A stretch of 32,000 nucleotides of DNA, from assembly GCF_004376175.1 (NCBI RefSeq), contig NZ_SNUY01000024.1, positions 1 to 32,000 of the forward strand, read 5' to 3'. The notes below the pieces were generated by a model that was not told the DNA's origin, did not search any database, and saw only the letters and a list, made by a program, of their open reading frames with translations. The DNA comes from Halalkalibacterium halodurans. GTDB taxonomy: Bacteria > Bacillota > Bacilli > Bacillales > Bacillaceae_D. Shown in pieces: positions 1 to 13,490 of this stretch (position 1 is the first letter of the stretch; each line of letters begins with the position of its first letter). The position numbers were made by a program, and so were the translations under genes.

Positions 1-256
1 TTAATATAATTTCAAAAAAATGTAAACTCACTCTCCGCTCTTAGCCTAATTTAATTTTTTTCTACGCTAGTTCTTCTGTAAAAATCGCTATCAACCAAGC
101 AGAAATTAATTTTGTCCGGACGCTCTTGAAAAAACGAAGTCTCTTCCTTGGGCAGATATCATTCCAGTACATGCGGAGTTTCCAGTCATCGGTCGGTCTG
201 TTAAATCAAAACTATTTAGCGTATCCGATTGCCAAGCCATTGTAAAAAAAGCCGTT

Positions 257-1060
257 GTGGAGAGCATGAAAAAACGATACAAGCGTGGCTGGTTTGATGA
301 AAATGGTCCACTCTATCGAATTGAAGTCGCCCTCCATAAGGATATAGCCACACTAACCATCGACACAAGCGGAACAGGTCTACATAAACGTGGCTACCGC
401 TACCTTCACAGCCAAGCACCGCTAAAGGAGACATTAGCTGCTGCAATGATTATGCTCTCCCATTGGAAGTCAGATCGCCCCTTCGCCGACCCGTTTTGCG
501 GATCAGGCACGATTCCAATTGAAGCGGCAATGATTGGGCAAAACATCGCACCTGGCTTTAACCGAGAATTCGTTTCCGAACAGTGGCATTGGATCGGAAG
601 CGAGCATTGGGATCGAGCACGTGAAGAAGTAGAAGATATGGCGAACTATGACCAGCCACTCGATATCCTTGGTTCAGACATTGACCATCGCATGGTCGAA
701 CTCGCACAAAACAATGCGATGGAAGCGGGATTTGGCGACTTGATTTCCTTCAAGCAAATGCAAGTCACCGACTTTCGACATAAAGAAGAGTACGGCATAT
801 TAATAGGAAATCCTCCGTACGGGGAGCGGATCGGCGAGAGGGAAGAAGTAGAGAAGATGTATCAAAAGATGGGGGAAGTTTTTCGTGAACATTTAGAGAC
901 ATGGTCCATCTACATCCTCACTTCCCATGAGGGGTTTGAAGAACTTTATGGCAAACAAGCGACGAAAAAGCGAAAGCTGTATAACGGGAACATTAAAACA
1001 GATTACTATCAGTTTTTTGGACCGAGACCTCCGCGTCATCCAGAGGGCTCTCAACAATAA
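257..1060 (+). CDS. class I SAM-dependent RNA methyltransferase, THUMP/UPF0020 type (YpsC/RlmL-like); catalytic domain intact, 5' part apparently out of frame
   Basis: SAM-binding motif DPFCGSGTIPIEAA and catalytic NPPYGERIG are present in the ORF-track protein. The same frame stays open upstream to 110 and encodes THUMP-like residues (LEKTKSLPWADIIPVHAEFPVIGRSVKSK), but has no ATG/GTG/TTG before GTG 257. Confidence 0.8.
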   Translation: MESMKKRYKRGWFDENGPLYRIEVALHKDIATLTIDTSGTGLHKRGYRYLHSQAPLKETLAAAMIMLSHWKSDRPFADPFCGSGTIPIEAAMIGQNIAPGFNREFVSEQWHWIGSEHWDRAREEVEDMANYDQPLDILGSDIDHRMVELAQNNAMEAGFGDLISFKQMQVTDFRHKEEYGILIGNPPYGERIGEREEVEKMYQKMGEVFREHLETWSIYILTSHEGFEELYGKQATKKRKLYNGNIKTDYYQFFGPRPPRHPEGSQQ

Positions 1061-1073
1061 GCTGATCAACGTT

Positions 1074-1106
1074 CAACCCTAGTCTTTCAAAGGATAGGGT
1101 TGTTTT
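1074..1106 (+). terminator. rho-independent terminator of the methyltransferase gene; probable target hairpin of the intron
   Basis: Stem caacccta (1074-1081) pairs with tagggttg (1095-1102), with additional inner pairs, followed by TTTT at 1103-1106. It starts 14 nt after the TAA stop. Confidence 0.75.
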
Positions 1107-1107
1107 G

Positions 1108-3000
1108 GTGTGCCCGGCATGTCTAACAGCTAGGTGGTGAAAGTCCACTACAGGCTCGGCAGTGGGAACTGTTAGCGAATGGCAAGGGTGTCTAGGGTGA
1201 CCTAGAATCTGAAGGAAGCCGGACGCAAAATCTTGGGACAACGAACAGAAACTGGATAGAAGGCTGACTGGGGACGGACGAGTTTCCCAAACAAAACGAA
1301 GTCCAACACTGCCCGAATCCCTACAGTAAATCCAGTGTCTACGAGAGGAAAGCGGTTAGACTTACCCGGGGAGATCTTACTGGGGTTTTCGAGATGAAGA
1401 AATTCCATAAGAAAACAACGAGTTCAGCGATGAGCTTGTGAACGGTAAGAAGTCAGCAGAGGTCATAGTAGTCCAATGGATGAAGGACTGAACAATAAGA
1501 ATCTTGGAACTAACGGAGGTGAGAAGTATGCATCGACCACAGAAAACATCAAAAGATGGCTACCTGCTGGAACATAAGGTGGAACCTGAACATAAAGCGG
1601 GAGCGTGCAGTATACTTCACGCTGAACCTAGAAGAAGAGATGGTGAAAGTTCAGAATGGATCAACGAGATTATTGATCGAGATAACCTCAATAGGGCTTA
1701 TAAAAGAGTCAAGAAGAACAAAGGAAAACCTGGGATAGATGGAATGACGGTAGACAAATTGCCCCTATTCTTAGCCAAAGAAAGCAGGTCTCTTGTGCGT
1801 GCCATTAAAAATGGAACGTATCAACCACAACCCGTTAAGCGGGTGGAAATCCCGAAGCCGGATGGTTCCAAAAGAAAGCTAGGAATTCCCACGGTCAAAG
1901 ACCGACTTGTCCAACAAGCGATTCTACAAGTAATTGAAAAATGGATCGACCCCCATTTCTCGGAAAACAGTTTTGGCTTCCGTCCAAATCGAAGTGCTCA
2001 CGACGCAATCGGAAAAGCAAAACGGTACTATGAAGAGGGATATCGATACGCGGTAGACATTGATATGAAGCAGTATTTCGATACAGTCAACCATGAGAAA
2101 CTCATGTACCATGTAGAGGAATTTATTCAGGACCCAAAAGTGCTTAAGCTAATTCGTAAATTCTTGCGAAGTGGCATGATGATTGGTGAAAAATATGAGC
2201 CAAGCGAGGTTGGAACTCCTCAAGGAGGAAATCTCTCACCGCTTCTCAGTAACGTCTATCTTCACCAACTGGACCTAGAACTAGAAAGGCGTGGTCACAA
2301 GTTTATCCGCTACGCAGATGATTGTAACATTTACGTGAAAAGCCAAAGGGCTGGAGAGAGAGTCCTAAAAAGCATGACAAAATTTCTTGAAGAAGAACTA
2401 AAGCTAACGGTGAATAAAGAGAAGAGCGAAGTTGGTAAACCGACGAAACGGAAGTTCTTAGGGTTCTGTATACATCCAACAAGAAATGGAGTACAAGTCC
2501 GTCCGCATAGTAAGGTGAAAAAGAGACTCGAAGAAAAAGTAAGAAAACTGACTTCCCGCAAACGCCCAGGAGAGATCCGTGAGATCATCAAAGAGGTCAA
2601 CCAAGTAACGAGGGGATGGATCAACTATTATGGAGTCGGTCTTGTGAAAACCTATGTTCAAGAAATGGATCGTTGGATACGTCGAAGGATTAGACAAATG
2701 ATCTGGAAAAGGTGGAAGAAGGTTAAAACTCGCTTTAAAAGTCTCATCAAACTAAAAATCCCCAAGCAAAAGGCTTGGGAATGGGCAAACACTCGGAAAG
2801 GCTACTGGCATATTTCAAATAGTTTCATCTTAAATACCGCAATTCCAAATCAACTTCTTGAACGGATTGGTTTACTCAATCTAACCCAACTATATTCCTC
2901 GATACATTCTAAACACACTTAACTTATTGAACCGCCGTATACGGACCCGTACGTACGGTGGTGTGAGAGGTCGGAGGCTAACCGCCTCCTCCTACTCGAT
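1108..3000 (+). mobile_element. group II intron, bacterial class C-like, full length with intron-encoded RT/maturase
   Basis: 5' end GTGTG at 1108-1112. About 420 nt of stop-rich structured sequence precede the RT ORF. Domain V is at 2931-2962: basal helix accgccgtat/gtacggtggt, AC bulge at 2951-2952, CGC triad at 2933-2935. Domain VI is at 2965-2997 with an unpaired A at 2994, 7 nt before a ...GAT 3' end. Boundaries are good to a few nt. Confidence 0.8.
1528..2922 (+). CDS. group II intron reverse transcriptase/maturase (no endonuclease domain)
   Basis: RT blocks are present (GIPTVKDRLVQQA, FGFRPNRSAHDA, YADD in IRYADDCNIYV), as is the maturase X motif RGWINYYG. The protein ends about 60 aa after X with no HNH/En domain. 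SD GGAGGTG lies 7 nt upstream of ATG 1528. The ORF-track TTG 1504 has no RBS. Confidence 0.9.
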   Translation: MHRPQKTSKDGYLLEHKVEPEHKAGACSILHAEPRRRDGESSEWINEIIDRDNLNRAYKRVKKNKGKPGIDGMTVDKLPLFLAKESRSLVRAIKNGTYQPQPVKRVEIPKPDGSKRKLGIPTVKDRLVQQAILQVIEKWIDPHFSENSFGFRPNRSAHDAIGKAKRYYEEGYRYAVDIDMKQYFDTVNHEKLMYHVEEFIQDPKVLKLIRKFLRSGMMIGEKYEPSEVGTPQGGNLSPLLSNVYLHQLDLELERRGHKFIRYADDCNIYVKSQRAGERVLKSMTKFLEEELKLTVNKEKSEVGKPTKRKFLGFCIHPTRNGVQVRPHSKVKKRLEEKVRKLTSRKRPGEIREIIKEVNQVTRGWINYYGVGLVKTYVQEMDRWIRRRIRQMIWKRWKKVKTRFKSLIKLKIPKQKAWEWANTRKGYWHISNSFILNTAIPNQLLERIGLLNLTQLYSSIHSKHT

Positions 3001-3063
3001 TGGAAAAATGAAGGAATTAGAAAGGCAAGGCCAACGAAATAGGGAAATTGTGAGGAGTTAGAC

Positions 3064-3103
3064 ATGAAAGGACACACACCCATTACTGCTAAGGTGTGTG
3101 TCC
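3064..3103 (-). terminator. probable terminator of the symporter gene
   Basis: 11-bp stem ggacacacacc (3070-3080) pairs with ggtgtgtgtcc (3093-3103). On the minus strand it is followed by TTTCAT, a weak U-tract. Confidence 0.5.
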
Positions 3104-3116
3104 ACATGTATGACCG

Positions 3117-4565
3117 TTAATTTTTCTCTTTTACTGGTTTTTCATCCCATGCTTCAATGTTCTTTAGGTCAGGCAGGCTGTTTTTGTAAAAGACAGGATC
3201 GATTCCTTGTTTACGCTGATGCTGATAATCCGTTAGTGCCTGAACGGCAATTTTCGCCAATAATGCAATAGCAATCAAGTTAACGATCGCCATCGCACCC
3301 ATAATCAAATCGGCCATTTCCCAAATAATCTGAAGCTCACTTGTAGCTCCGATTAAAATCATGGTAAGAAATGCGAGGCGAAAGACTGTTAGTAAGGCGC
3401 GGTTTTGAGAAATAAACTGAATGTTCGCTTCACCGTAATAGTAATTCCCGAGCAATGAACTGAAGGCGAAAAAGAAGATCGCAATTGTCACAAATGTCAT
3501 CGACCATTCACCTATATGAACGGTTAGTGCCTCTTGTGTTAACTGAATACCATCCATTTCACCGACTGTATAGACGTCAGTTAACAAGATCAAGAAGGCG
3601 GTCGCACTACAAATAATAAGAGTATCGGTTAGGACGCTGAGAGATTGAACCAATCCTTGTTTTACCGGATGTGAAACGTGAGCGGTTGCGGCTGCGTTTG
3701 GCGCACTTCCCATTCCAGCTTCATTCGAGAATAAACCACGCCGAATTCCATGCATAATCGCTGCCCCGAAGCCCCCGCCCACGACTTCCTGTATTCCGAA
3801 GGCGTTGCCTACAATCAGACCGATGACAGCCGGAACTTGCGTGATATTTAGTAGCACGATGACAAGGGCAATCAATACGTATGCAATGGCGAATGTCGGG
3901 ACGATGACTTCTGCAATGACCGCAATTCTACGTATCCCACCAAAGACAATGAACGCCATCACAAAAGCGATGATCAACCCAATAAAGAAAGGATTTAAAT
4001 CATAAGCACCTACAAAAGCATCTGCAATCGTATGTGTTTGAACAGCGTTAAAAATTAATCCGAAACATAACGTAATTAAGATGGCAAACAAAATACCTGC
4101 CCATCTGGCGTTTAACGCTTTTTCCATGTAATAGGCTGGTCCACCTCGGAAACCATCCTTATCTTTTACTTTATAAATTTGCGCCAGCGTGCTCTCGATG
4201 AAGCCGGTCGCTGCCCCGATTAGAGCAATGATCCACATCCAAAAAATTGCACCGGGCCCACCTAAGGAAATCGCAACTGCTACACCAGCCAAATTACCTG
4301 TTCCGACGCGGGCAGCGGTACTAATGGCGAATGCTTGAAAGGAGGACGTTCCTTTCCTTTCTTTAAACGCCTTTCGATTCATTCCTTCCACGAGGAGGCG
4401 TCCCATCTCTCCGAGCAATCGAAATTGGACAAAGCGTGAAACGAACGTAAAATAAAGACCGAGCCCTAACAGTAAAGCGATTAAGACGTATGTCCAAATG
4501 AACGTGTTTCCGACATCCACCAGCCTGCCAAACCACGTGTCGGCACGAAACCAGTTTTCCACCAA
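3117..4565 (-). CDS. alanine/glycine:cation symporter (AGCS) family transporter
   Basis: 482-aa polytopic membrane protein with the family-typical AARVGTGNLAGVAVAISLGGPGAIFWMW segment. SD AAAGGAG lies upstream. GTG at 4562 is spaced better than TTG at 4565. Confidence 0.9.
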   Translation of the reverse strand: MVENWFRADTWFGRLVDVGNTFIWTYVLIALLLGLGLYFTFVSRFVQFRLLGEMGRLLVEGMNRKAFKERKGTSSFQAFAISTAARVGTGNLAGVAVAISLGGPGAIFWMWIIALIGAATGFIESTLAQIYKVKDKDGFRGGPAYYMEKALNARWAGILFAILITLCFGLIFNAVQTHTIADAFVGAYDLNPFFIGLIIAFVMAFIVFGGIRRIAVIAEVIVPTFAIAYVLIALVIVLLNITQVPAVIGLIVGNAFGIQEVVGGGFGAAIMHGIRRGLFSNEAGMGSAPNAAATAHVSHPVKQGLVQSLSVLTDTLIICSATAFLILLTDVYTVGEMDGIQLTQEALTVHIGEWSMTFVTIAIFFFAFSSLLGNYYYGEANIQFISQNRALLTVFRLAFLTMILIGATSELQIIWEMADLIMGAMAIVNLIAIALLAKIAVQALTDYQHQRKQGIDPVFYKNSLPDLKNIEAWDEKPVKEKN

Positions 4566-4634
4566 ATCACTCCTTTATCGTATTCGTCGCGTGCTATTCT
4601 AACAGAATATTCTTATGAATTCTAGATTCTAAAA

Positions 4635-4662
4635 ATTCTAAAAATAATAAAAGTCTGGACAA
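4635..4662 (-). promoter_or_regulatory. candidate sigma-A promoter of the symporter gene
   Basis: The minus strand reads TTGTCC (4657-4662), a 16-nt spacer, then TAGAAT (4635-4640). It is embedded in an array of ATTCT/AGAAT pentamers. Confidence 0.35.
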
Positions 4663-4688
4663 ATATCCAACAATGGTTATTATTGTTA

Positions 4689-4730
4689 TTGAACAGGTTG
4701 CTTTTATACAAGGTCAAGCAACCTGTTCAA
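4689..4730. repeat. perfect 15-bp inverted repeat with a 12-nt spacer
   Basis: ttgaacaggttgctt (4689-4703) and aagcaacctgttcaa (4716-4730) are exact reverse complements. No U-tract follows on either strand. It lies between divergent genes, 49 nt upstream of ATG 4779. Confidence 0.7.
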
Positions 4731-4778
4731 CTGTTGAATGGTGCATTAAATGACATTATTTACAAAAGGAGGGTGAGT

Positions 4779-5291
4779 ATGCTCGAACGAAGAAATCAAG
4801 TCGCTAAGCTGCTCTTATATTTTTGTTATGTTATCTTAGGTGTGGCTTTCATTGGGGGACTTACTTTAGGCTTAGCGCATGACATCTATTATTCATTTTC
4901 TTTTTTAATTACTTGGGATTATTGGGTAAAAGGAGCTTTATTGGCTGGGCTATTCTTATTTTTCTCCGAATTGATTGAACAAATGCACATCCGTAACTTT
5001 GGAAGCGAGCAGATCAAAAATACCCCTGAAAACCCTTTGACTCCAGAGCCTGGAACGAAAAATGAATCTAGGTTTCCGATAAGTGAACAAGATCGTCAAT
5101 CGGTTTACGAGTTTTATGCAGAGAAAGGGGAAGAGGTAGAAGACATTGTTTCGACACCAGTGAAAGACGTTTGTCTTGTCAAGATTGGCGGAGAACTCCG
5201 ACCTGTCGAAATTGGTGATTTTAAGCCTATAGAACGATCAATCAAGGAGTATCCTGAGCTCCGCCAATGGTATGATCAGCATCAGAAGTAA
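4779..5291 (+). CDS. hypothetical membrane protein (2 predicted TM segments plus an acidic soluble C-terminal domain)
   Basis: SD AAAGGAGGGTG lies 5 nt before ATG 4779, which is M33 of the ORF-track protein. Hydrophobic segments are LLLYFCYVILGVAFIGGLTLGL and GALLAGLFLFFSELI. I recognise no family. Confidence 0.6.
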   Translation: MLERRNQVAKLLLYFCYVILGVAFIGGLTLGLAHDIYYSFSFLITWDYWVKGALLAGLFLFFSELIEQMHIRNFGSEQIKNTPENPLTPEPGTKNESRFPISEQDRQSVYEFYAEKGEEVEDIVSTPVKDVCLVKIGGELRPVEIGDFKPIERSIKEYPELRQWYDQHQK

Positions 5292-6177
5292 CATTCACGT
5301 CTGGTACTCGCACGGTTATTACTTTTCCAACTGTCGTAATGTTAACAGGTGTCTTCATGTAGATTTCTCCATCCATATCGATAGAAAGGACTGGCTCCGT
5401 TTCGATCTGGCACTGATCACAGGTCATCCGATCAATATGATCAGACTCATTTACCATAGCAGGGGAGACGAGTCCCTTCACTAGGTCTTTGATGAAAGGG
5501 AGACCACCCTCCTTCACAATGTAAATCGTCACAAAAGGCTGTTCGATGGCGTTTTCGTCTAATTGGACAGGTAAGGTACCAAGAAACTGACCGTGCATAA
5601 CTAATAAGAGAATGGCTTGCCCAGACATGGAGCCTTTCGTTGATGTAATGGTATAAGAAAAAGGAGATGGCTCACGTAATGATTGGAGAGCAGATAAAAA
5701 ATAGCTAAACCTCCCAAAGGTTTCTTTTAACTCAGGGTTCGTTCCTTCTGATGCAGTTGTGATGATCCCCATTCCGAGGAAATTTGTATAGCAACGGTGA
5801 TTTGCTTGAATGAGCGGCACTCGTTTCCATGTGCCGCTCTCAAGCAAATTTCCCGCTTCCACAAAGGAAAGAGGAATTCTAAGAGAGCGAGCAAAATCGT
5901 TGCACGTCCCAGTTGGTAGGACAACAAGTGGAGGGGGAGAGGGGGATACCGCTAACCCATTTATACATTCATGAACGGTGCCATCTCCCCCCATTACGAT
6001 CATAAGATCAACTTCCCGCTCACGACAAATCGATTCAATGTCACCTTTTTCTTTGCTTGGAATAATCGTCAATTCTCCAATGCTTTGTAGTGCGCGAGGT
6101 ACAACATCTTTTAGGTACTTATCTGTTTTTCCGTTTCCTGCTTTTCCATTATAAAGCAAGAATGCCCGTTGAAACAT
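5242..6177 (-). CDS. diacylglycerol/lipid kinase family protein (YegS/BmrU-like)
   Basis: DAGK catalytic-domain pattern: LLYNGKAGNGK near the N-terminus and MGGDGTVHECINGL. SD AAGGGGGGA precedes ATG 6177. The 3' end overlaps the convergent 4779-5291 gene by 50 nt. Confidence 0.85.
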   Translation of the reverse strand: MFQRAFLLYNGKAGNGKTDKYLKDVVPRALQSIGELTIIPSKEKGDIESICREREVDLMIVMGGDGTVHECINGLAVSPSPPPLVVLPTGTCNDFARSLRIPLSFVEAGNLLESGTWKRVPLIQANHRCYTNFLGMGIITTASEGTNPELKETFGRFSYFLSALQSLREPSPFSYTITSTKGSMSGQAILLLVMHGQFLGTLPVQLDENAIEQPFVTIYIVKEGGLPFIKDLVKGLVSPAMVNESDHIDRMTCDQCQIETEPVLSIDMDGEIYMKTPVNITTVGKVITVRVPDVNVTSDADHTIGGAQDTP

Positions 6178-6414
6178 GTGCAATCCCCCCTTGGACGATC
6201 GTTTTCAGCATACCCTCTCAAGTAGATCCTTACACGTCGTATCTTTAAATCAACCGTAAAACCCCCAATTAGCGGAAGCTTTGCCCGCGGGAAGCGAGTG
6301 GTTTTTGAAGCAATCAACTTTCTATAAAATAAACACCTGTTATTAGCTGTATTTTGTACCAGCCTCTAAAAATACCATGCAAAGCAGGTGAAAAGCTGCC
6401 AGCATGGTTTTGGA

Positions 6415-7650
6415 TTACACGTCTGGGTTTGGTTGAGCAGGCTCAATAATAGGCGTGTTAGGTTTGTTTTGGTCGTGTTTTCTTTGCCAAAAAATTGAAA
6501 CAAATGTGGTTGCTGCAAGAACGATCAGGCAAAGGATGAATGGATAGGTGATTTGCACATCAAACAACACACCAGCTAGAGCTGGTCCAAGTACGTTTCC
6601 AATGCTCATATAGGCATTGTTCATTCCCATCGCAAAGCCTTGTTCATTGCCTGCAAGCTTTGAAATTAAGGTCGTTAACACCGGCCGCAAAATCGAAGTA
6701 GCTAAAAAGATGAACATCGTTACCGCAAAAAACATCCCGTAGCTCGGGGCAAACAGGGAAAGTGAAAAGCCAAAAGAGGCGACACCAAGAAACAACGAGA
6801 GCACGGTACGTTCTCCGAGCCAGCGAACGAATCGTTCGACGACAAAGAGCTGAACGATCACACTAATCGTACCAATGGAAGTTAATAAGATCGCAATTTG
6901 TCCTGGCGTTGCTCCAAATTGATTATCAACAAACAAACCGAGAATGGATTCGTACGCCATTAACCCAAAACTCATAACTAGAGTGATAACGAGTGGGATA
7001 AAATAAGGCTTTTTGACGGATTATATGAGTTGTTTCACGAGCGGACTTTCGCTTACTTGTTCGGCTGTAAGTTCCTTTGCCTCTTCTGTTTGACTTTCCT
7101 TTAATAACATAATCGAGAATAGAACAGCAACCAAAGACAAAATCGCAGAAAGTAGAATCGGCATTTTCAGTCCGAAGTCTGCAAGAAAACCACCAACCCC
7201 TGGGCCAACAACAAATCCTAGAGACATGGCTGCTGATACCAAGCTATTTCCTTTCGCCCGTTCATCGATCGTTGTAATGTCTGCTACGTACGCGAAGATA
7301 GCTGGGATCAAAAGAGCTGCGCCAACACCCCCGACAACGCGAGAAGCGTAGAGCCACCAAATCGAATCAAAAAAATAAAAAACGAACATGGAAAGGGTTA
7401 CCCCGCCAAGTCCGAGAATAATCATATACCTACGCCCATATTGATCAGTCCACTTCCCTGCAACAGGTGACATGACGAGCTGTGCCCCAGCAAAAATGGC
7501 AATCATGAGACCTGCGGCGGTACCGCCTTCTCCAATTGACTCGAGGTAGGCAGGTAGAATCGGAATAATGATTCCGAAGCTGGCGATCGCAATAAACATG
7601 TTGATCATTAACAGAATCATTTTATGACGTTGTTCAGACTTCACGAGCAC
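6415..7650 (-). pseudogene. MFS drug/H+ antiporter-type transporter interrupted by a single in-frame TAA (7021-7023)
   Basis: ORFs 7021-7650 and 6415-6975 share one frame, giving ...PLVKQLI*SVKKPYFIPLVITLVMSFGLMAYE.... MFS motif A is GKWTDQYGRRYM. The joined length is 411 codons with about 12 TM segments. Confidence 0.8.
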
Positions 7651-7698
7651 TCTTCCTCCCTACAGTATGAAATATTTCTAGACACTAAAGACTTACTT

Positions 7699-7727
7699 AT
7701 AATAATTGGAAGGGAGATAAGTGTCAA
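7699..7727 (-). promoter_or_regulatory. sigma-A promoter of the MFS gene
   Basis: The minus strand reads TTGACA (7722-7727), a 17-nt spacer, then TATTAT (7699-7704), about 45 nt upstream of SD GGGAGGAAG. Confidence 0.6.
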
Positions 7728-7795
7728 TCATTTTAACCTAAAAAAAGTAGGAAATTTACAATGATAGATAAGATGATGGAAGACAGGAAAAGGGA

Positions 7796-7837
7796 AGAAA
7801 AAATGGTTACTTTACGTTGCACAAACGTAAAGTAACC
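7796..7837 (-). terminator. rho-independent terminator of the phosphodiesterase gene
   Basis: The minus strand reads ggttactttacgtt-tgtgca-acgtaaagtaacc followed by ATTTTTTC. It starts 9 nt after the stop at 7846. Confidence 0.85.
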
Positions 7838-7845
7838 AAGTATGT

Positions 7846-8595
7846 TTAGTCAAAAGAGCGAAAGGTGGACCAGCCGCTTCGACCTGTTGGTGTGGAAAAT
7901 TCTTGATACTCCTCTTTTGTCATGATTTGAACGGAGGGAAAACGCTCGTTTATATAGGTAATCGTAGCATGACTTCCTGTAACGATGAGTGTTTGTAATT
8001 GCTCAGTGGAAAGAGACTCTAGTATGTTTGCCAACCGCTCTCCGTCTGAAGTAGAGCGACTTTGAATGTGCAGTAATAGCCTTTCTTCAGGAAAGTTGTT
8101 AAGAATTTCTTCCAAGGTGGGGATAAGACCAACACCGTCCCCACGGAATGGATACGTGTTGTCTCCTTCAAGTTGATAGCCGTAGCCGATGTCGAGTTGT
8201 TTTAGCTCCTCTGTCGTATAATCCCAAATGGGACCCGTTCCATTTGTTCGACAATCTAAGTTCCAGTCACGAAATGCGACAAAATTCCCATCACGGGTTT
8301 GCTGCAAGTCCACTTCAACGATCGCGGCACCTGCCTCGTACGCCGCTCGAATGGCAGGGATCGTATTTTCAATCGAAGCCGGTTCTGTATTTGCGAGCTG
8401 TATCTCGGAACATCCATTGATTTCATCAGACGTTAAAACATAATCTGGGTGAGCTCCTCGGTGAGAAAGGAGGAGGGGCTCATGTTTTGTTTCTTTTGCA
8501 AATAATAAATCGGTATGGTTAATGTATAGGACGAACGCAATGGCGATTAAAACAATGCTAACTTTAAAATTAAGGAATGAGCGAAATCGTTTCAA
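7846..8595 (-). CDS. glycerophosphodiester phosphodiesterase (GDPD) family protein with an N-terminal membrane anchor
   Basis: N-terminal TM segment VSIVLIAIAFVLYI. GDPD-like motifs are LSHRGA, ENTIPAIRAA and IVEVDLQQTRDGNFVAF. Confidence 0.8.
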   Translation of the reverse strand: MKRFRSFLNFKVSIVLIAIAFVLYINHTDLLFAKETKHEPLLLSHRGAHPDYVLTSDEINGCSEIQLANTEPASIENTIPAIRAAYEAGAAIVEVDLQQTRDGNFVAFRDWNLDCRTNGTGPIWDYTTEELKQLDIGYGYQLEGDNTYPFRGDGVGLIPTLEEILNNFPEERLLLHIQSRSTSDGERLANILESLSTEQLQTLIVTGSHATITYINERFPSVQIMTKEEYQEFSTPTGRSGWSTFRSFD

Positions 8596-8743
8596 GATAT
8601 CTTCCCTCCCATGTGACCTACTGCCTATCTTACGCTTTTATCATATGCTCCCCTTTGCGCAGACACAATAGTTATGACATAATAATCAAATGATAAACAT
8701 GATCGCAATACAGAGACTGGATCAAAGTAGAGGAGAAAGAAAA

Positions 8744-9436
8744 ATGAGAAGTAATCCGTTTCTTATTGTAGAAAGAGGGGTCCCATACGAACCTGCTACC
8801 GTTTTTACTGTTAAAAAAGAATCGTGGTCCATTGGACGGTTGGGGAAATCGTGGAAGCCAGATATCGCTTTTGATAATGTGTTTATTTCGAGAAAGCACG
8901 CCCTTCTTTACGTTGAGGAGGGCCAAGTGTTTGTAAAGGATTTAGATAGCAAGCATGGTACGTATGTGAACGACCAAAGACTAGCACCCCATGCTCCAGA
9001 GCGATTAAGCCACGGAGATCGACTATCGTTAGCGAAGGATATCGTTGTCCTTACATTTTCAGCAATTGATATGGAGGAAACCTTTGACTTAACACCATTT
9101 TTGCCTGTGAATGAAAAAAAGAGCAAGGAGCCGTATCCGGATCATGTGAAGCTTGACCCGGTGAAGCAAACGTTGCTCGTGTCAGGGGAAGACTATCATT
9201 TTTCGGAAAAAGAATATAAATGCATTGAACTTCTCGTTCAACGATATGGAGAATTTGTCTCAAAGGAGACTTTGCTTCCATACGTTTGGCCAGAGCGAAA
9301 ACGAACGGATGGTGAAGGGGTCGATGTTAGTGCTGAGGAAGTGAACTCTCTTCTTTATCGTGTGCGGAAAAAGGTCGCTCAATCGATTGAAATCGAAACG
9401 ATTCGTGGAAAAGGGTACATTCTAACGACCAAATAA
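8744..9436 (+). CDS. FHA domain + OmpR/PhoB-type winged-helix DNA-binding protein (no receiver domain)
   Basis: N-terminal FHA pattern: SIGR...DIAFDNVFISRKHALLYVEEGQVFVKDLDSKHGTYVND. C-terminal Trans_reg_C pattern: FSEKEYKCIELLVQRYGEFVSKETLLPYVW...LLYRVRKKV...IETIRGKGYIL. SD GGAGAAAG precedes ATG 8744. Confidence 0.85.
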   Translation: MRSNPFLIVERGVPYEPATVFTVKKESWSIGRLGKSWKPDIAFDNVFISRKHALLYVEEGQVFVKDLDSKHGTYVNDQRLAPHAPERLSHGDRLSLAKDIVVLTFSAIDMEETFDLTPFLPVNEKKSKEPYPDHVKLDPVKQTLLVSGEDYHFSEKEYKCIELLVQRYGEFVSKETLLPYVWPERKRTDGEGVDVSAEEVNSLLYRVRKKVAQSIEIETIRGKGYILTTK

Positions 9437-9463
9437 TCGACTGTTATGAAAAGGGGAGGGATT

Positions 9464-9889
9464 ATGCGTATTCAAGGGATTAACCACTTGCTTTTTTCAG
9501 TAAAGTGCTTAGAGCGATCCATTGAGTTTTATAAGAAGGCCCTTGGCGCAAAGCTACTCGTGAAAGGAAGAACAACGGCCTATTTTGATCTTCAAGGAAT
9601 ATGGCTTGCCTTAAATGAGGAGCCGGATATCCCAAGAAATGAAATCCATCAGTCGTACACTCATATTGCTTTCACCGTTGGGGAAGAGGAAATGGAGGAG
9701 GCATATGAACGTCTTGCTGGATTAGGGGTAAATATTTTAAAAGGGCGACCACGGGATCCACGTGATCGCCAGTCCATTTATTTTACCGATCCTGATGGCC
9801 ATAAGTTTGAATTTCATTGTGGAACATTGAACGACCGATTAGACTATTATCGGGAAGCAAAGCCGCATATGACTTTCTTTGATGATTAA
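9464..9889 (+). CDS. fosB: fosfomycin resistance thiol transferase FosB
   Basis: Collinear with my recollection of B. subtilis FosB: [66 protein letters not shown] precedes ATG 9464. Confidence 0.92.
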
Positions 9890-10749
9890 ACGTCGTCCTC
9901 CCGCCGTAAGGGCATCGTGCAGCATCGGAACGAACCACCGGATTTGATAATTTCTGTAATGTCCACTTCTATCACATCAAAGCCGCGCTTGCGCAGTTGC
10001 TCATTAACATTCGTGTTTACAGGCAGACTGATGACGCGCTTATGGCCAATTGATAGCACATTGGTACCGAGCGTGAATTGTTCTTCTTCTGTGACTTCGA
10101 TCAAATCATAGCGAGAAGCGATCAGCTTCTCTTCTTTTCTGTTCATTACACCTGGATAAATGAGGGCCTCGTGGGGAGAAACGATATTAAACACGCAGTC
10201 CAAGTGTAAATATTTTGGATGGAATGGAACGGGGATTACCTCATACTCAGGGAGAAGGCGTTGGATATGCTCAATCGCTGCCATGTTTGTACGGTTACTG
10301 ATGCCAATGTAGATGGAATGGCGATCGATGATGACATCGCCTCCTTCGATCTCATCACTTACTAAGTTGTAATAAGAAATGCCTTTCAGTTCGAGCCACT
10401 CTTTTAACGTGTTCTCTTCCCCTTTACGAACATCGTGCGCCATATCGGCGACGAAGGTCGTTTGCCCAAGGGTGAAGCCAATGTCACGAGTAAACACCTG
10501 TTCAGGGTATTTTTCGTTGACGGGAAGTAGATGAACGTTGACACCGTGTTTTTGCAACACGCGGACAAACTCATGGTGCTGCTCCATTGCAATTTCAATG
10601 TGGATGTCTTCGTTTTTAAATTTTTTTTGCGTTTCGTTAATCATGTTTCGCAGCGTCATATGCTTTGGTTCACAGACAATGACATCTTTTAAAACGCCAT
10701 ATTCTGTTTTGCATTGGGTGAGCGTTGTTGGTCTTTTTAAGAGTCCCAT
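9886..10749 (-). CDS. dimethylarginine dimethylaminohydrolase / amidinotransferase family protein (YkgA-like)
   Basis: C-terminal catalytic-Cys motif [11 protein letters not shown] and guanidino-modifying enzyme architecture. SD AAAGGAGAG precedes ATG 10749. Its stop codon overlaps the fosB stop (TTAA). Confidence 0.8.
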
Positions 10750-10872
10750 TTGTTCTCTCCTTTCTCCGTTTTCCATAGCATACCCGTCTGCCTGTTTTCC
10801 ATGAGCTGTCATGAGTCATAAGGGAGGGCCTTCTAAGCCATACTAATAAAAAAGAGAAAGCAGGGACGTTTG

Positions 10873-11172
10873 ATGTTTAACAATGACACTGGAGGAGGGC
10901 GATTTTTTATCCCTTTCCTCCCAATAGATAATACAGAAGATGTAAAACAAGCTCATGACAGTTATGATTTCTATGTAGGAGAAGAGTATCTTGGCAAATG
11001 TGAGCTGATGACGGCGTCAGAAGAGGCAGACGATGTCTTATCCTTTCTAGAAAAACAAGGACTAAGAGTAGAGGGAAAGCTTGATGGAGATCATTTTATC
11101 GTTCAGCCCATTCACGCAAAGGAGAATGAAAAAGTGAAGCGAGCTGTGGAAGTTTTTTTGCACAATCGATAG
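10873..11172 (+). CDS. hypothetical small acidic protein
   Basis: 99-codon ORF with a weak SD (AGGGA) 6 nt before ATG 10873 and a terminator downstream. I recognise no family. Confidence 0.55.
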   Translation: MFNNDTGGGRFFIPFLPIDNTEDVKQAHDSYDFYVGEEYLGKCELMTASEEADDVLSFLEKQGLRVEGKLDGDHFIVQPIHAKENEKVKRAVEVFLHNR

Positions 11173-11187
11173 GTTTTATCCAGTCAG

Positions 11188-11211
11188 CCCTCTACATCGC
11201 GAGAGGGTTTT
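11188..11211 (+). terminator. rho-independent terminator
   Basis: Stem ccctct / agaggg with an 8-nt loop, followed by TTTT (11208-11211). Confidence 0.6.
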
Positions 11212-11338
11212 GACATGTAGATTAAAGATAGCGACGAGTGAATCGAACAACTTGAGCGTCTTGATCGTTTGAGCGATTCAAAATTGGATCGATTCATATA
11301 GACAAGAGTAATGAGTCATGTCACGAGGAGAGAGTAGG

Positions 11339-12394
11339 ATGGATTTTACCGTACAGTATGTATCCTTTTTTGTTATCCGTATGGACGGACAAGGGGAACA
11401 AGTGACCAAACACTTTACACATTTTCAAACATTAGATCAAGCTGGCTATGAACATAGCACGCTATCGTCCTTTTTAGATGGGGAATTGATGAAAATTTCA
11501 AAACGAAAGGTGGACCGCTTTCCGAAATCGGACAACGTACCAACGAAAATCGGTCGCTTTACCGTTGAACCTGGGCATGGTCTGTCATCGAACCCGAATT
11601 ATAATCAATTTCAGCGCCTTCTGATTGCCAAGAACCCCGAAGCCTTTCAGAAGGAAGGCGAAGCGTTAGTCCGTGGGTATATGGATACGAGTGCGATCCG
11701 AGGAGGGGCGTTCATCGTCATTCGGGCTAAGCTAAACCAATACATGGACAACCCCTTTTTGTTTCTTTTAAAATGCGACTTTGAGCAAAAAGTGGCTCAT
11801 ATTTCTGACGCCTCCACGTTAATCAAGGAAGTTGAAATGGCGATTACAACTAAAAATATGAAATCGATTCAGTATCCGTATATGCCAGAGGAAGGAATGG
11901 TTGAGGAAGGTGAGTTAAAGCTTCATCAAGCGTCACATGCCCGTTACTTTGAAGATTTTTTACCATTTGTCACATATGAAAAGCCAATGCCCGAAATCAT
12001 CAAAGAGCATGTCATCCAGCAGGCCCATTCTCATATTGCCGCCACATATGAAGAGCAAAGCGATGTGCGAATGGCAGAAGAGGAGCGACTTGAAGCATGG
12101 GCGAACACGCCGAAGCGCGAGTTGCAAGAGCAATGGACGCCAGAGCAAGTCATAGAGGCAGCGGCTCCGATTGTCGAACAACAGCCTGAGCTTGAGTTAA
12201 AACTAAAGCTAGACCATTTGCAAGTAAAAGCGATGCTGTCTGATTTTGGTGAATCACTCCACATCGCAAAAACAAACGGGAAATACGTCTTACTCATTGA
12301 AGGGGATTCGTTTCAGTTTGAGAAAGGCTATTCGCCGGTTGAATTTTTAAAGCCAGAGCCATTGGAAGAGGTGCTGAAGAAGATAAGGGGATAA
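11339..12394 (+). CDS. conserved hypothetical protein, ~350 aa (possibly the Bacillus DUF3900 family; weak NdpA-like pattern)
   Basis: SD AGGAGAGAG precedes ATG 11339. It is a long uninterrupted ORF with ordinary composition. The family name is from memory and unverified. Confidence 0.7.
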   Translation: MDFTVQYVSFFVIRMDGQGEQVTKHFTHFQTLDQAGYEHSTLSSFLDGELMKISKRKVDRFPKSDNVPTKIGRFTVEPGHGLSSNPNYNQFQRLLIAKNPEAFQKEGEALVRGYMDTSAIRGGAFIVIRAKLNQYMDNPFLFLLKCDFEQKVAHISDASTLIKEVEMAITTKNMKSIQYPYMPEEGMVEEGELKLHQASHARYFEDFLPFVTYEKPMPEIIKEHVIQQAHSHIAATYEEQSDVRMAEEERLEAWANTPKRELQEQWTPEQVIEAAAPIVEQQPELELKLKLDHLQVKAMLSDFGESLHIAKTNGKYVLLIEGDSFQFEKGYSPVEFLKPEPLEEVLKKIRG

Positions 12395-12458
12395 ACATAT
12401 AAGAAGTGTAAACCTTGGGAAAACTGGTAGCGGTGGCCATCATTGTGAATACGAGCTT

Positions 12459-12502
12459 AGGAGGGAGCTACCTCAATAAATTAACTTTTGAGGTAGCCTC
12501 CT
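12459..12502. terminator. hairpin between convergent genes (candidate bidirectional terminator)
   Basis: 10-bp stem gctacctcaa (12467-12476) pairs with ttgaggtagc (12488-12497), with flanking G:C and G:U pairs. U-tracts are weak. Confidence 0.5.
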
Positions 12503-12910
12503 TTATCGATTTTGCTGTTTATGCTTCCACATCAAGTAACGATAGCGAATGGTGCAGCCGATACAAAAGCCACAAAGGGCAAGTCCTGCTGCAACGACAA
12601 CCATGATCGAAAAGATAAGTCCGAGTATAGAAAAACCTGTAGCAAACGTAAGAATGGCGATCCCGATGCAGATCGTTGCAATCCATTGATTGAAGCGTTG
12701 TTGATCCGCATCTTCTGGCGGATACGTGTCAGCAGGTTTTTTTAACAAAGGCTGAAATGTGATCATGATAAGGTTTTTACGAAACGCTAATGCGATCACA
12801 CCAACGACAAAAGGCAGCCATAATATCCAAGGACTCACAATTACCCCGAGGATGACCGTAATGACGAGAAACAGTTGATTGATCTGAACGAGCGGCTTTG
12901 GGATACTCAA
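12503..12910 (-). CDS. small integral membrane protein, DUF4395-like
   Basis: Four hydrophobic segments and the C-terminal CGFCIGCTIRYRY motif I associate with DUF4395. Confidence 0.65.
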   Translation of the reverse strand: MSIPKPLVQINQLFLVITVILGVIVSPWILWLPFVVGVIALAFRKNLIMITFQPLLKKPADTYPPEDADQQRFNQWIATICIGIAILTFATGFSILGLIFSIMVVVAAGLALCGFCIGCTIRYRYLMWKHKQQNR

Positions 12911-13094
12911 TTTGTACTACTCCCCCCTGAAGGTTTTAGCTTACGAAAAGTATAACAGGAAGACAGGGGTTAGTGAAAGTGTGACGATTGCCGCATGAAA
13001 AATCATATAGTGTTCATTGAAAAAATGTGAAACTTTTTCTTGCCTCAATACGTCTTAAAGGTAAAAGAGAGGAACATGGAAGGGGACATCGACA

Positions 13095-13490
13095 GTGAAA
13101 TGGCTCTTATATGGATTGGCTCTGTTTCTGTTGGCAGGTTGCGGAACTGCTCATTCAGTCGATGGGGATCTCCCTCCTTTTTACCAAGGAAAGGTTGTTC
13201 ATGTAAGTGTAGTAGATGAGAACCAGGGGTTTGTGCTGTTAACTGGGCAAGGATCAGACGAAGGAAATGACTATCAGAACTTCTCATTTACAATCAATGA
13301 GCAAACCAATATTGAAGATGAGGAAGGGAAAGAAACGTCCATTACCGAAATGAACGAAGGGGATCAATTACTTGTTTGGCTCCCGAGTGGGGATGCCTCA
13401 ATCCGTGAAAGCTATCCGCCTCAGGCGAATGCGGGGAAAATCGTGATTGTGGCAGAAAACAATGGCGGGCATGAGGAAAGAAGGCGGTAA
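13095..13490 (+). CDS. lipoprotein of unknown function
   Basis: Signal peptide with lipobox: MKWLLYGLALFLLAGC. SD GGAAGGGGA precedes GTG 13095. Confidence 0.75.
   Translation: MKWLLYGLALFLLAGCGTAHSVDGDLPPFYQGKVVHVSVVDENQGFVLLTGQGSDEGNDYQNFSFTINEQTNIEDEEGKETSITEMNEGDQLLVWLPSGDASIRESYPPQANAGKIVIVAENNGGHEERRR

Follow-up and report, generated by a model that had tools for sequence, protein, structure and literature searches.

A class C group II intron behind a methyltransferase-gene hairpin in Halalkalibacterium halodurans

A 32,000-nucleotide stretch of the Halalkalibacterium halodurans genome (assembly GCF_004376175.1, contig NZ_SNUY01000024.1, positions 1 to 32,000 of the forward strand), here called the window, holds at positions 1108–3000 what we read, with a probability of about 0.95, as an intact class C (IIC) group II intron retroelement that retrotransposed in sense orientation behind the hairpin of a BH1771-type methyltransferase gene. 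Class C introns that sit behind terminators are textbook knowledge and were first characterized in H. halodurans. The present intron is an ordinary member of this well-known class, and its protein is already annotated as 'group II intron reverse transcriptase/maturase'. A preliminary description of this DNA, made from the letters and their open reading frames (ORFs), had assigned it to class C on three grounds: a CGC catalytic triad, a reverse transcriptase (RT) devoid of the endonuclease (En) domain, and insertion behind a hairpin. All three are present, and the nearest solved RTs are those of IIC introns.

Insertion boundaries and strain polymorphism

The ends of the intron are set by five loci in which the same site is empty. 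In one of them (L086, GCA_034259345.1), the methyltransferase gene and a convergent alanine:sodium symporter gene lie 163 bp apart. Window 126–1107 aligns to positions 6224–7205 of this locus and window 3001–8953 to positions 7206–13158, the two blocks being adjacent there, while window 1–125 is without a match. Four further loci (L090–L093), which carry the C-125-type allele and stand for 21 contigs, are also empty and read gggttgttttg/tggaaaaatg, where the slash marks the insertion point. All five empty sites equal the window minus 1108–3000 and show no target-site duplication. Because the two blocks are adjacent in L086, and likewise in L090–L093, the insertion is exactly 1108–3000; because G1107 differs from T3000 and G1108 from T3001, its position is free of ambiguity. 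T3001, which follows almost every copy of the intron, was considered as the last intron nucleotide and rejected, as it is present in the empty site. An exact 30-nt junction search of a genome contig collection gave no match, a result that reflects the collection or its representative genome and not biology.

A query that included the flanks of the intron gives the same ends. Across about 80 related loci the modal start of homology is the G of GTGYG, and its end is CGAT plus one T. Homology sometimes starts a few Ts earlier because the targets share a T-run, and the flanks of the related copies are, on visual inspection, unrelated on both sides. The termini 1108 and 3000 of the preliminary description are thereby those of the related loci and of the five empty sites, and the ligated junction that it had predicted, gttttg/tggaaaaatg, is the sequence of the unoccupied site in all five. 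Its statement that no gene is interrupted also holds, as the insertion lies in the 163-bp spacer between convergent genes.

The methyltransferase site is polymorphic among strains. It is occupied by introns of 99.9–100% identity in four other loci (L001, L002, L088 and L089, from GCA_036219485.1 and three read-set assemblies), the copy in L001 being 100% identical. A 99.7% identical copy (L087) lies 48 nt after spoVS in a strain that has no intron at its methyltransferase site. It follows a hairpin and TTTTTTTTG, and its intron-binding sites (IBS) are the same as here, with TTTG as IBS1 and T as IBS3. This near-identical second copy, in a strain with an empty methyltransferase site, indicates recent mobility as judged by sequence comparison.

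Anatomy of the intron and its protein

The elements of the intron and its target are listed below, with the evidence for each in brackets. EBS stands for exon-binding site, DI to DVI for the six domains of the intron, MFE for minimum free energy and IEP for intron-encoded protein.

1108–3000, plus strand: complete group IIC intron, 1893 nt (five empty-site loci; Rfam; near-identical copies)
1108–1112, plus strand: 5' GUGUG, consensus GUGYG (sequence; GTGYG start in all related copies)
1113–1370, plus strand: DI, with closing helix 1113–1117/1366–1370 (RF02001; MFE fold)
1207–1217, plus strand: IIC-specific epsilon' bulge, 11 nt unpaired, AUCUGAAGGAA (RF02001 alignment; AGGAA at 1213)
1288–1291, plus strand: EBS1 CAAA in the DId terminal loop (pairs with IBS1 UUUG 1104–1107)
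1329, plus strand: EBS3 A, second A of the GUAAAU bulge in the DId coordination loop (pairs with U3001; covariation)
1371–1490, plus strand: DII and DIII with the J2/3 linker (RF01998; MFE helices)
1493–2929, plus strand: DIV, with the ORF in its loop (closing stem CAAUAAG 1493–1499/CUUAUUG 2923–2929)
1528–2922, plus strand: RT/maturase IEP, 464 aa (Pfam; TIGR04416; alignment to GsI-IIC RT)
2931–2962, plus strand: DV (RF00029; fold; covariation)
2964–2998, plus strand: DVI with bulged branch-point A2994, starting with a U2964–G2998 pair (fold; distal helix covaries)
1074–1102, plus strand: terminator-like stem-loop, the intron's structural target (fold; identical in empty-site loci)
1103–1107, plus strand: U-run and G, with IBS1 UUUG at 1104–1107 as the last four exon nucleotides (complementary to EBS1 CAAA at every position)
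3001, plus strand: IBS3, the first 3'-exon nucleotide, U/T (present in the empty site; covaries with 1329)
126–1060, plus strand: 3' part of the methyltransferase gene, codons ~75–385 (Pfam THUMP and UPF0020)

A scan with Rfam models, which the preliminary description had proposed as a check, matches DI–DIII and DV–DVI, in each case above the gathering score. RF02001 (group-II-D1D4-3) covers 1191–1360 with 137.6 bits and E = 1e-28, RF01998 (group-II-D1D4-1) covers 1416–1488 with 68.2 bits, and RF00029 (Intron_gpII, DV–DVI) covers 2930–3000 with 45.8 bits. The GTGTG at 1108–1112 was correctly taken for the 5' end, with the refinement that the exon ends with G1107, which belongs to IBS1. The same can be said of the roughly 420 nt that were described as having no credible ORF before that of the RT/maturase: 1108–1527 (420 nt) contains no plus-strand ORF of at least 40 aa except a TTG-extended start of the RT ORF. 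Adding the 78 nt 3' of the ORF brings the non-ORF RNA to 498 nt.

The MFE fold of the intron without its ORF recovers the closing helices and the EBS1 hairpin; left unconstrained, it mispairs the 5' GUGUG and the DIV region. The DIV stem was set by complementarity and covariation and not by this fold. Its two strands are perfect 7-bp complements, the 3' strand follows directly after the stop codon of the ORF, and the stem covaries at the same position in relatives, for example as CATGAAA/TTTCATG and CAATCAA/TTGATTG. The 7-bp stem and its covariation therefore place the ORF entirely inside the DIV loop.

DV is formed by a 10-bp basal helix, a 3-bp distal helix (2941–2943/2948–2950) and an AC bulge at 2951–2952. 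Its triad C2933 G2934 C2935 aligns to the consensus AGC of RF00029 and is invariant in 31 related copies, and its distal stem has a 4-nt deletion relative to the RF00029 consensus. In DVI, A2994 lies at −7 from the intron end, and the 3' terminal GAU, which agrees with the AY end of group II introns, occupies 2998–3000. The last 70 nt, comprising DV and DVI, fold at −36 kcal/mol (z = −3.8). Among 31 distinct related copies the proposed DV/DVI pairs are formed in 98.2% of cells, with compensatory changes at 10 pairs, against just 37–48% when the pairing is slid by 1–3 columns as a control. Rfam and the fold thus bear out DV as first drawn (2931–2962, with its 10-bp basal helix, AC bulge and CGC at 2933–2935), and DVI keeps its bulged A2994 and the GAT end at 3000 while its limits become 2964–2998 instead of 2965–2997.

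The IEP starts with an ATG at 1528 behind GGAGG, in an ORF of 1.395 kb with an intact YADD active site. RT, maturase (X/thumb) and DNA-binding domains make up the protein, and its alignment with GsI-IIC RT, itself En-less, extends to the end of the latter. It has the same sequence as WP_134229450.1 of H. halodurans and scores 424 bits against the NCBIfam model TIGR04416 'group II intron reverse transcriptase/maturase' (cut-off 300). Its Pfam matches are RVT_1 and GIIM only, with no HNH or endonuclease domain. The nearest solved RTs are all from IIC introns, namely GsI-IIC (6AR1, E = 2e-122), E. rectale (7UIM, E = 4e-114) and 5HHJ/5HHL (about 1e-87). The IIA protein LtrA (9e-46) and the IIB protein T.el4h (2e-41) are far weaker matches. 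In this nearest-neighbour comparison the bit scores are 295–413 for IIC RTs and 146–160 for IIA and IIB RTs.

The first 45 residues of the IEP (window 1528–1665) form a conserved N-terminal extension of about 45 aa with the consensus MQRPQxTSKDGY...CS...RRDG, in which five residues are invariant in 13 sequences. GsI-IIC RT and MarathonRT are without it, and both start at about residue 41–46 of the IEP. The extension might add a role in RNA binding or in recognition of the DNA hairpin.

The target hairpin and exon recognition

The structure that the intron follows is a stem-loop of 12 bp. Its outer stem of 8 bp pairs CAACCCUA (1074–1081) with UAGGGUUG (1095–1102); a 1-nt bulge leads to an inner 4-bp stem, UCUU/AGGA (1083–1086/1091–1094), which is closed by a UCAA loop. 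Its folding energy as RNA is −15.5 kcal/mol (z = −2.4), a value that none of 200 shuffled sequences attains. The hairpin begins 14 nt past the methyltransferase stop codon (1058–1060) and is followed by UUUU (1103–1106) and G1107. The intron begins 5 nt past the hairpin and 47 nt past the stop codon. The preliminary description had a hairpin and T-run at 1074–1106 end the methyltransferase gene, and folding confirms it, with the qualification that the gene here is just a 3' fragment. A simple consensus terminator scan passed over the hairpin at 1074–1102 on account of its 1-nt bulge and short T-run; folding recovered it.

The same arrangement is found in relatives of the intron. A scan of one genome per species gave 80 loci with RTs 45–81% identical to that of the IEP, and H. 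krulwichiae has two copies, 95.5% identical, each of which follows a hairpin, one at a cold-shock gene and the other at a cupin gene. Of 63 distinct sites, 60 (95%) have a folding energy of −10 kcal/mol or better in the 45 nt upstream. The sites have a median of −19.4, whereas 895 control windows drawn from these loci have one of −6.1 and reach −10 in 20% of cases (Mann-Whitney p = 7e-35). The preliminary description had asked if other copies of the element each follow a hairpin, and 60 of these 63 related sites do.

This distribution bears on the possibility that the hairpin is no working terminator at all, just an inverted repeat that fits the shape of the target, so that the intron would lie within the methyltransferase mRNA. 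Only four Us follow the stem, the consensus terminator scan is silent on 1074–1102, and some IIC introns are reported behind 'other inverted repeats' (PMC1702495). We consider this explanation unlikely nonetheless. The stem-loop is the sole strong hairpin on its strand in the spacer, it stands 14 nt past the stop codon of a gene with a convergent neighbour, and in the empty site it is followed by UUUUGUGG. Moreover, relatives are found overwhelmingly behind hairpins with T-runs, with 5.2 Ts on average in the last 8 nt before the intron.

A second hairpin is present in the spacer. A perfect 11-bp inverted repeat, GGACACACACC...GGTGTGTGTCC, lies at 3070–3103, 14 nt past the stop codon that ends the minus-strand symporter gene (3117–4565), and is probably the terminator of that gene. 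The intron sits at the plus-strand hairpin and not at this one.

The nucleotides adjacent to the hairpin are recognized through short pairings. The DId terminal loop has 8 nt (1286–1293, CCCAAACA) and contains EBS1. The EBS1–IBS1 pairing was scored for 60 distinct copy/site pairs, among which 25 tetranucleotides occur: 3.53 of its 4 positions pair. Random re-pairing of copies and sites gives 2.14 ± 0.10, and the observed value was reached in 0 of 10,000 permutations. C1287, whose counterpart in the E. rectale intron is delta, does not vary among 61 copies. The search for EBS3 at column 1329 was guided by the structure paper on that intron (PMC10190682). This column covaries with the first 3'-exon nucleotide, with A facing T in 22 copies, G facing C in 4 and G facing T in 1 (Fisher p = 2.8e-4). 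Position 1329 is G in six copies, in five of which the 3' end is readable (four C and one T, which would form a G–U pair), and the four switches to G–C look independent. The first 3'-exon nucleotide is T in most copies with a mapped 3' end and G or C in a few exceptions. Column 1316, a near-invariant A that changes in one copy with C as IBS3, was also considered as EBS3; it was ambiguous, whereas 1329 gave clean covariation.

No counterpart of EBS2 emerges from DI, which holds only 5-nt chance complements to the exon and none of at least 6 nt (a weak test). The hairpin, at exon positions −6 to −34, occupies the place of IBS2. These comparisons show three determinants of the target: the 5' hairpin, the 4-bp EBS1–IBS1 pairing and the 1-bp EBS3–IBS3 pairing. 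The earlier statement that such introns recognize a hairpin rather than a long exon-binding site is therefore right about the hairpin and incomplete about the exon, since the short EBS1 and EBS3 pairings are used too.

Some relatives occur in tandem. Related IIC introns are arranged head to tail in three loci (L011 at about 1904, L058 at about 1943 and L068 at 1409–4546), the new intron starting directly after the CUCGAU end of the previous one, as if DVI and the 3' end of the earlier intron had served as the hairpin target. In L068, from a metagenome-assembled genome of Acidobacteriota, the array is built of two alternating intron types, and the first G is missing from some junctions, which read GAT/TGTGCC. 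Others stand alone on contigs of intron length (1.83–1.92 kb): L005, L007, L018, L019, L022, L027, L036, L046, L051, L053, L072 and L079. In draft and read-set assemblies, such lone contigs of about 1.9 kb are the signature of a collapsed multi-copy repeat.

Relation to known introns, mobility and significance

The hallmarks of IIC introns, as given by Toor, Robart et al., are small size, a CGC triad, a DV distal stem 2 bp shorter than in IIA and IIB introns, an 11-nt AGGAA bulge (epsilon'), a 3–4 bp EBS1–IBS1 pairing, an IIB-like EBS3, the absence of EBS2, and a terminator-like stem-loop in place of IBS2 (PMC1702495). Class C IEPs are without an En domain (PMC4424553). The intron at 1108–3000 has every one of these published features. 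This combination leaves it very improbable that the element belongs to another En-less lineage (class D, E or F, with an IIB-like ribozyme) or to the attC-targeting subgroup of IIC. The former would find some room in the protein comparison, as the class of the IEP comes from its nearest neighbours and classes D–F offer no solved structures to compare. The RNA, however, is IIC and not IIB in its CGC triad, short DV distal stem, AGGAA bulge, 4-bp EBS1 and lack of an EBS2-like complement of at least 6 nt. As for the attC subgroup, judged by flanks and hairpin, the neighbours are conserved chromosomal genes (methyltransferase and symporter, 163 bp apart) and not integron cassettes, the target hairpin has a T-run, and the intron is sense-oriented.

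The closest published system is B.h.I1 of strain C-125, an intron of the same species and class (PMC1702495). Both start with GUGUGCC and end with CCUACUCGAU, and both have the CGC triad, an EBS1 of 3–4 bp, EBS3, no EBS2, an En-less IEP and a terminator stem-loop a few nucleotides upstream. They differ in that B.h.I1 lies after rrn operons and has an ORF of about 1.3 kb, against 1.395 kb with about 45 extra N-terminal residues here. Identity of the two was considered and rejected: in the published termini, 9 of 25 nucleotides at the 5' end differ from the intron, as do 5 of 23 at the 3' end, and none of three internal primers for B.h.I1 finds a match in the intron with fewer than 9 substitutions. 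Because these termini and primers mismatch and the C-125-type locus is unoccupied, the intron represents a second IIC lineage in H. halodurans. The fuller proposal, a second lineage distinct from B.h.I1 that is currently mobile and whose IEP extension is possibly functional, we regard as doubtful.

Structural counterparts are found in two further introns. In the structure determined by cryo-electron microscopy for the E. rectale IIC ribonucleoprotein (RNP) on DNA, IBS1 is paired to a 4-nt EBS1 that lies in the terminal loop of DId, A231 pairs with a T past the insertion site, and the DNA stem-loop rests against the protein and DI, held there by its shape (PMC10190682). The present intron resembles it (7UIM/7UIN, MarathonRT) in a full-length RT alignment and in the order of stem-loop, spacer, 4-nt IBS1 and single-T IBS3, with A1329 as the same element as A231. 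The E. rectale intron has another host, an EBS1 of AAAG where CAAA is found here, and an RT without the N-terminal extension; the present intron, for its part, is known from sequence. The RT of the Geobacillus stearothermophilus intron (GsI-IIC, 6AR1) was compared at the protein level. Residues 46–463 of the IEP align with its residues 5–421, with the same RT/thumb/DNA-binding layout and no En domain, and the IEP differs by its roughly 45 extra N-terminal residues. The crystallized IIC intron of Oceanobacillus iheyensis is presumably another close likeness, offered as a lead only: its 5' GUGUGCCCGGCAUG, AAUCUGAAGGAAGC motif, EBS1 hairpin GAGUUUGCAUAACAAAAC and DV GAACCGCCGUAUACCGAACGGUACGUACGGUGGUGUG would be near-identical to those of the present intron family.

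The gene upstream of the intron is disrupted in this strain. It encodes a THUMP/RlmL-type class I S-adenosylmethionine-dependent RNA methyltransferase, the orthologue of BH1771, with 99% identity to H. halodurans P0121 and clustering with BH1771 of strain C-125. The intact protein has 385 aa in other H. halodurans strains. Here the gene is cut at window 125/126 (about codon 75) by unrelated AT-rich sequence, the junction being AATTTTGTCCGGACGCTC/TTGAAAAAACG with the AT-rich side first. Neither the rest of the window nor the fetched loci contain window 1–125 a second time, and plasmids gave no match to it; it may be the end of an insertion sequence or other repeat at the contig edge.

Other differences lie downstream of the intron. 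The window and L001 are identical over 126–3103, a stretch that takes in the methyltransferase fragment and the intron. Beyond it their divergence is about 1.2%, and there are indels of 8 nt (at 3339) and 24 nt (at 4873); so sharp a shift at the 3' exon may reflect a recombination boundary. The symporter gene is uncalled in L001 and may be frameshifted there, and an exact-protein look-up of the symporter gave no match. Farther along, window 6415–7650 (minus strand) has two ORFs, 6415–6975 and 7021–7650, at the interval where L086 (10620–11849) has a single gene for a 409-aa major facilitator superfamily transporter. Because two ORFs stand here against one gene in L086, the transporter gene may be disrupted in this strain.

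Studies of B.h.I1 and of the E. rectale IIC RNP (PMC1702495, PMC4424553, PMC10190682) suggest how the intron would act. Read-through of the methyltransferase terminator would transcribe it at a low level. The RNA would fold, the IEP made from DIV would bind it, and IEP-assisted splicing would relink gttttg/tggaaaa. The resulting lariat–IEP particle would read the DNA stem-loop by shape and the single-stranded stretch by EBS1/EBS3 pairing, and would reverse splice into that strand. Because the IEP has no endonuclease, the nascent strand at a replication fork would then prime cDNA synthesis. The GC skew is positive across the whole window, so the sense strand of the intron is leading-strand sequence; insertion into the lagging-strand template would predict this. 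A promoter scan gave no above-chance match upstream of or at the intron start (3 found against 3.3 expected, all inside the intron), with which transcription by read-through alone would be consistent. Placed past a terminator and not within a gene, the insertion would do little harm to the host.

Several points weigh against an intact, retrotransposing intron behind a terminator. The methyltransferase gene is truncated in this strain, so that the source of read-through, and hence the promoter that would drive it into the intron, is uncertain. Splicing and mobility of this copy are deduced by comparing sequences. The terminator function of the hairpin is a prediction, set against a short U-run (4 U) and the miss by the scan. 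The IEP is placed in class C by nearest neighbour and not by phylogeny, with no solved RT for classes D, E and F. The support from GC skew is weak, as genes and terminators of Firmicutes are co-oriented with replication anyway.

Some of these points would equally suit a dead or silent relic, IIC by descent, that no longer splices or moves. Its expression is a matter of sequence inference, a terminator precedes it and, in this strain, so does a disrupted gene, and promoter matches do not exceed chance. Such a relic is nevertheless quite improbable. The ORF with its YADD motif and every conserved ribozyme element are intact, and copies 99.7–100% identical across strains, at two terminators and with a polymorphic site, point to very recent movement. 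We therefore retain the reading of an intact IIC retroelement.

The discovery value of the intron is small, as the class is well known and this species was its first characterized host. Its use lies in what surrounds it. The two terminators, at which strains differ in having or lacking the intron between identical flanks, provide a natural and exactly delimited set of donor, empty and occupied sites for IIC retrotransposition in the native host, and the 60–80 related copies provide clean maps of EBS1–IBS1 and EBS3–IBS3 covariation for this sub-lineage. In annotation, 1108–3000 should be labelled as a group IIC intron and not as an RT gene alone.

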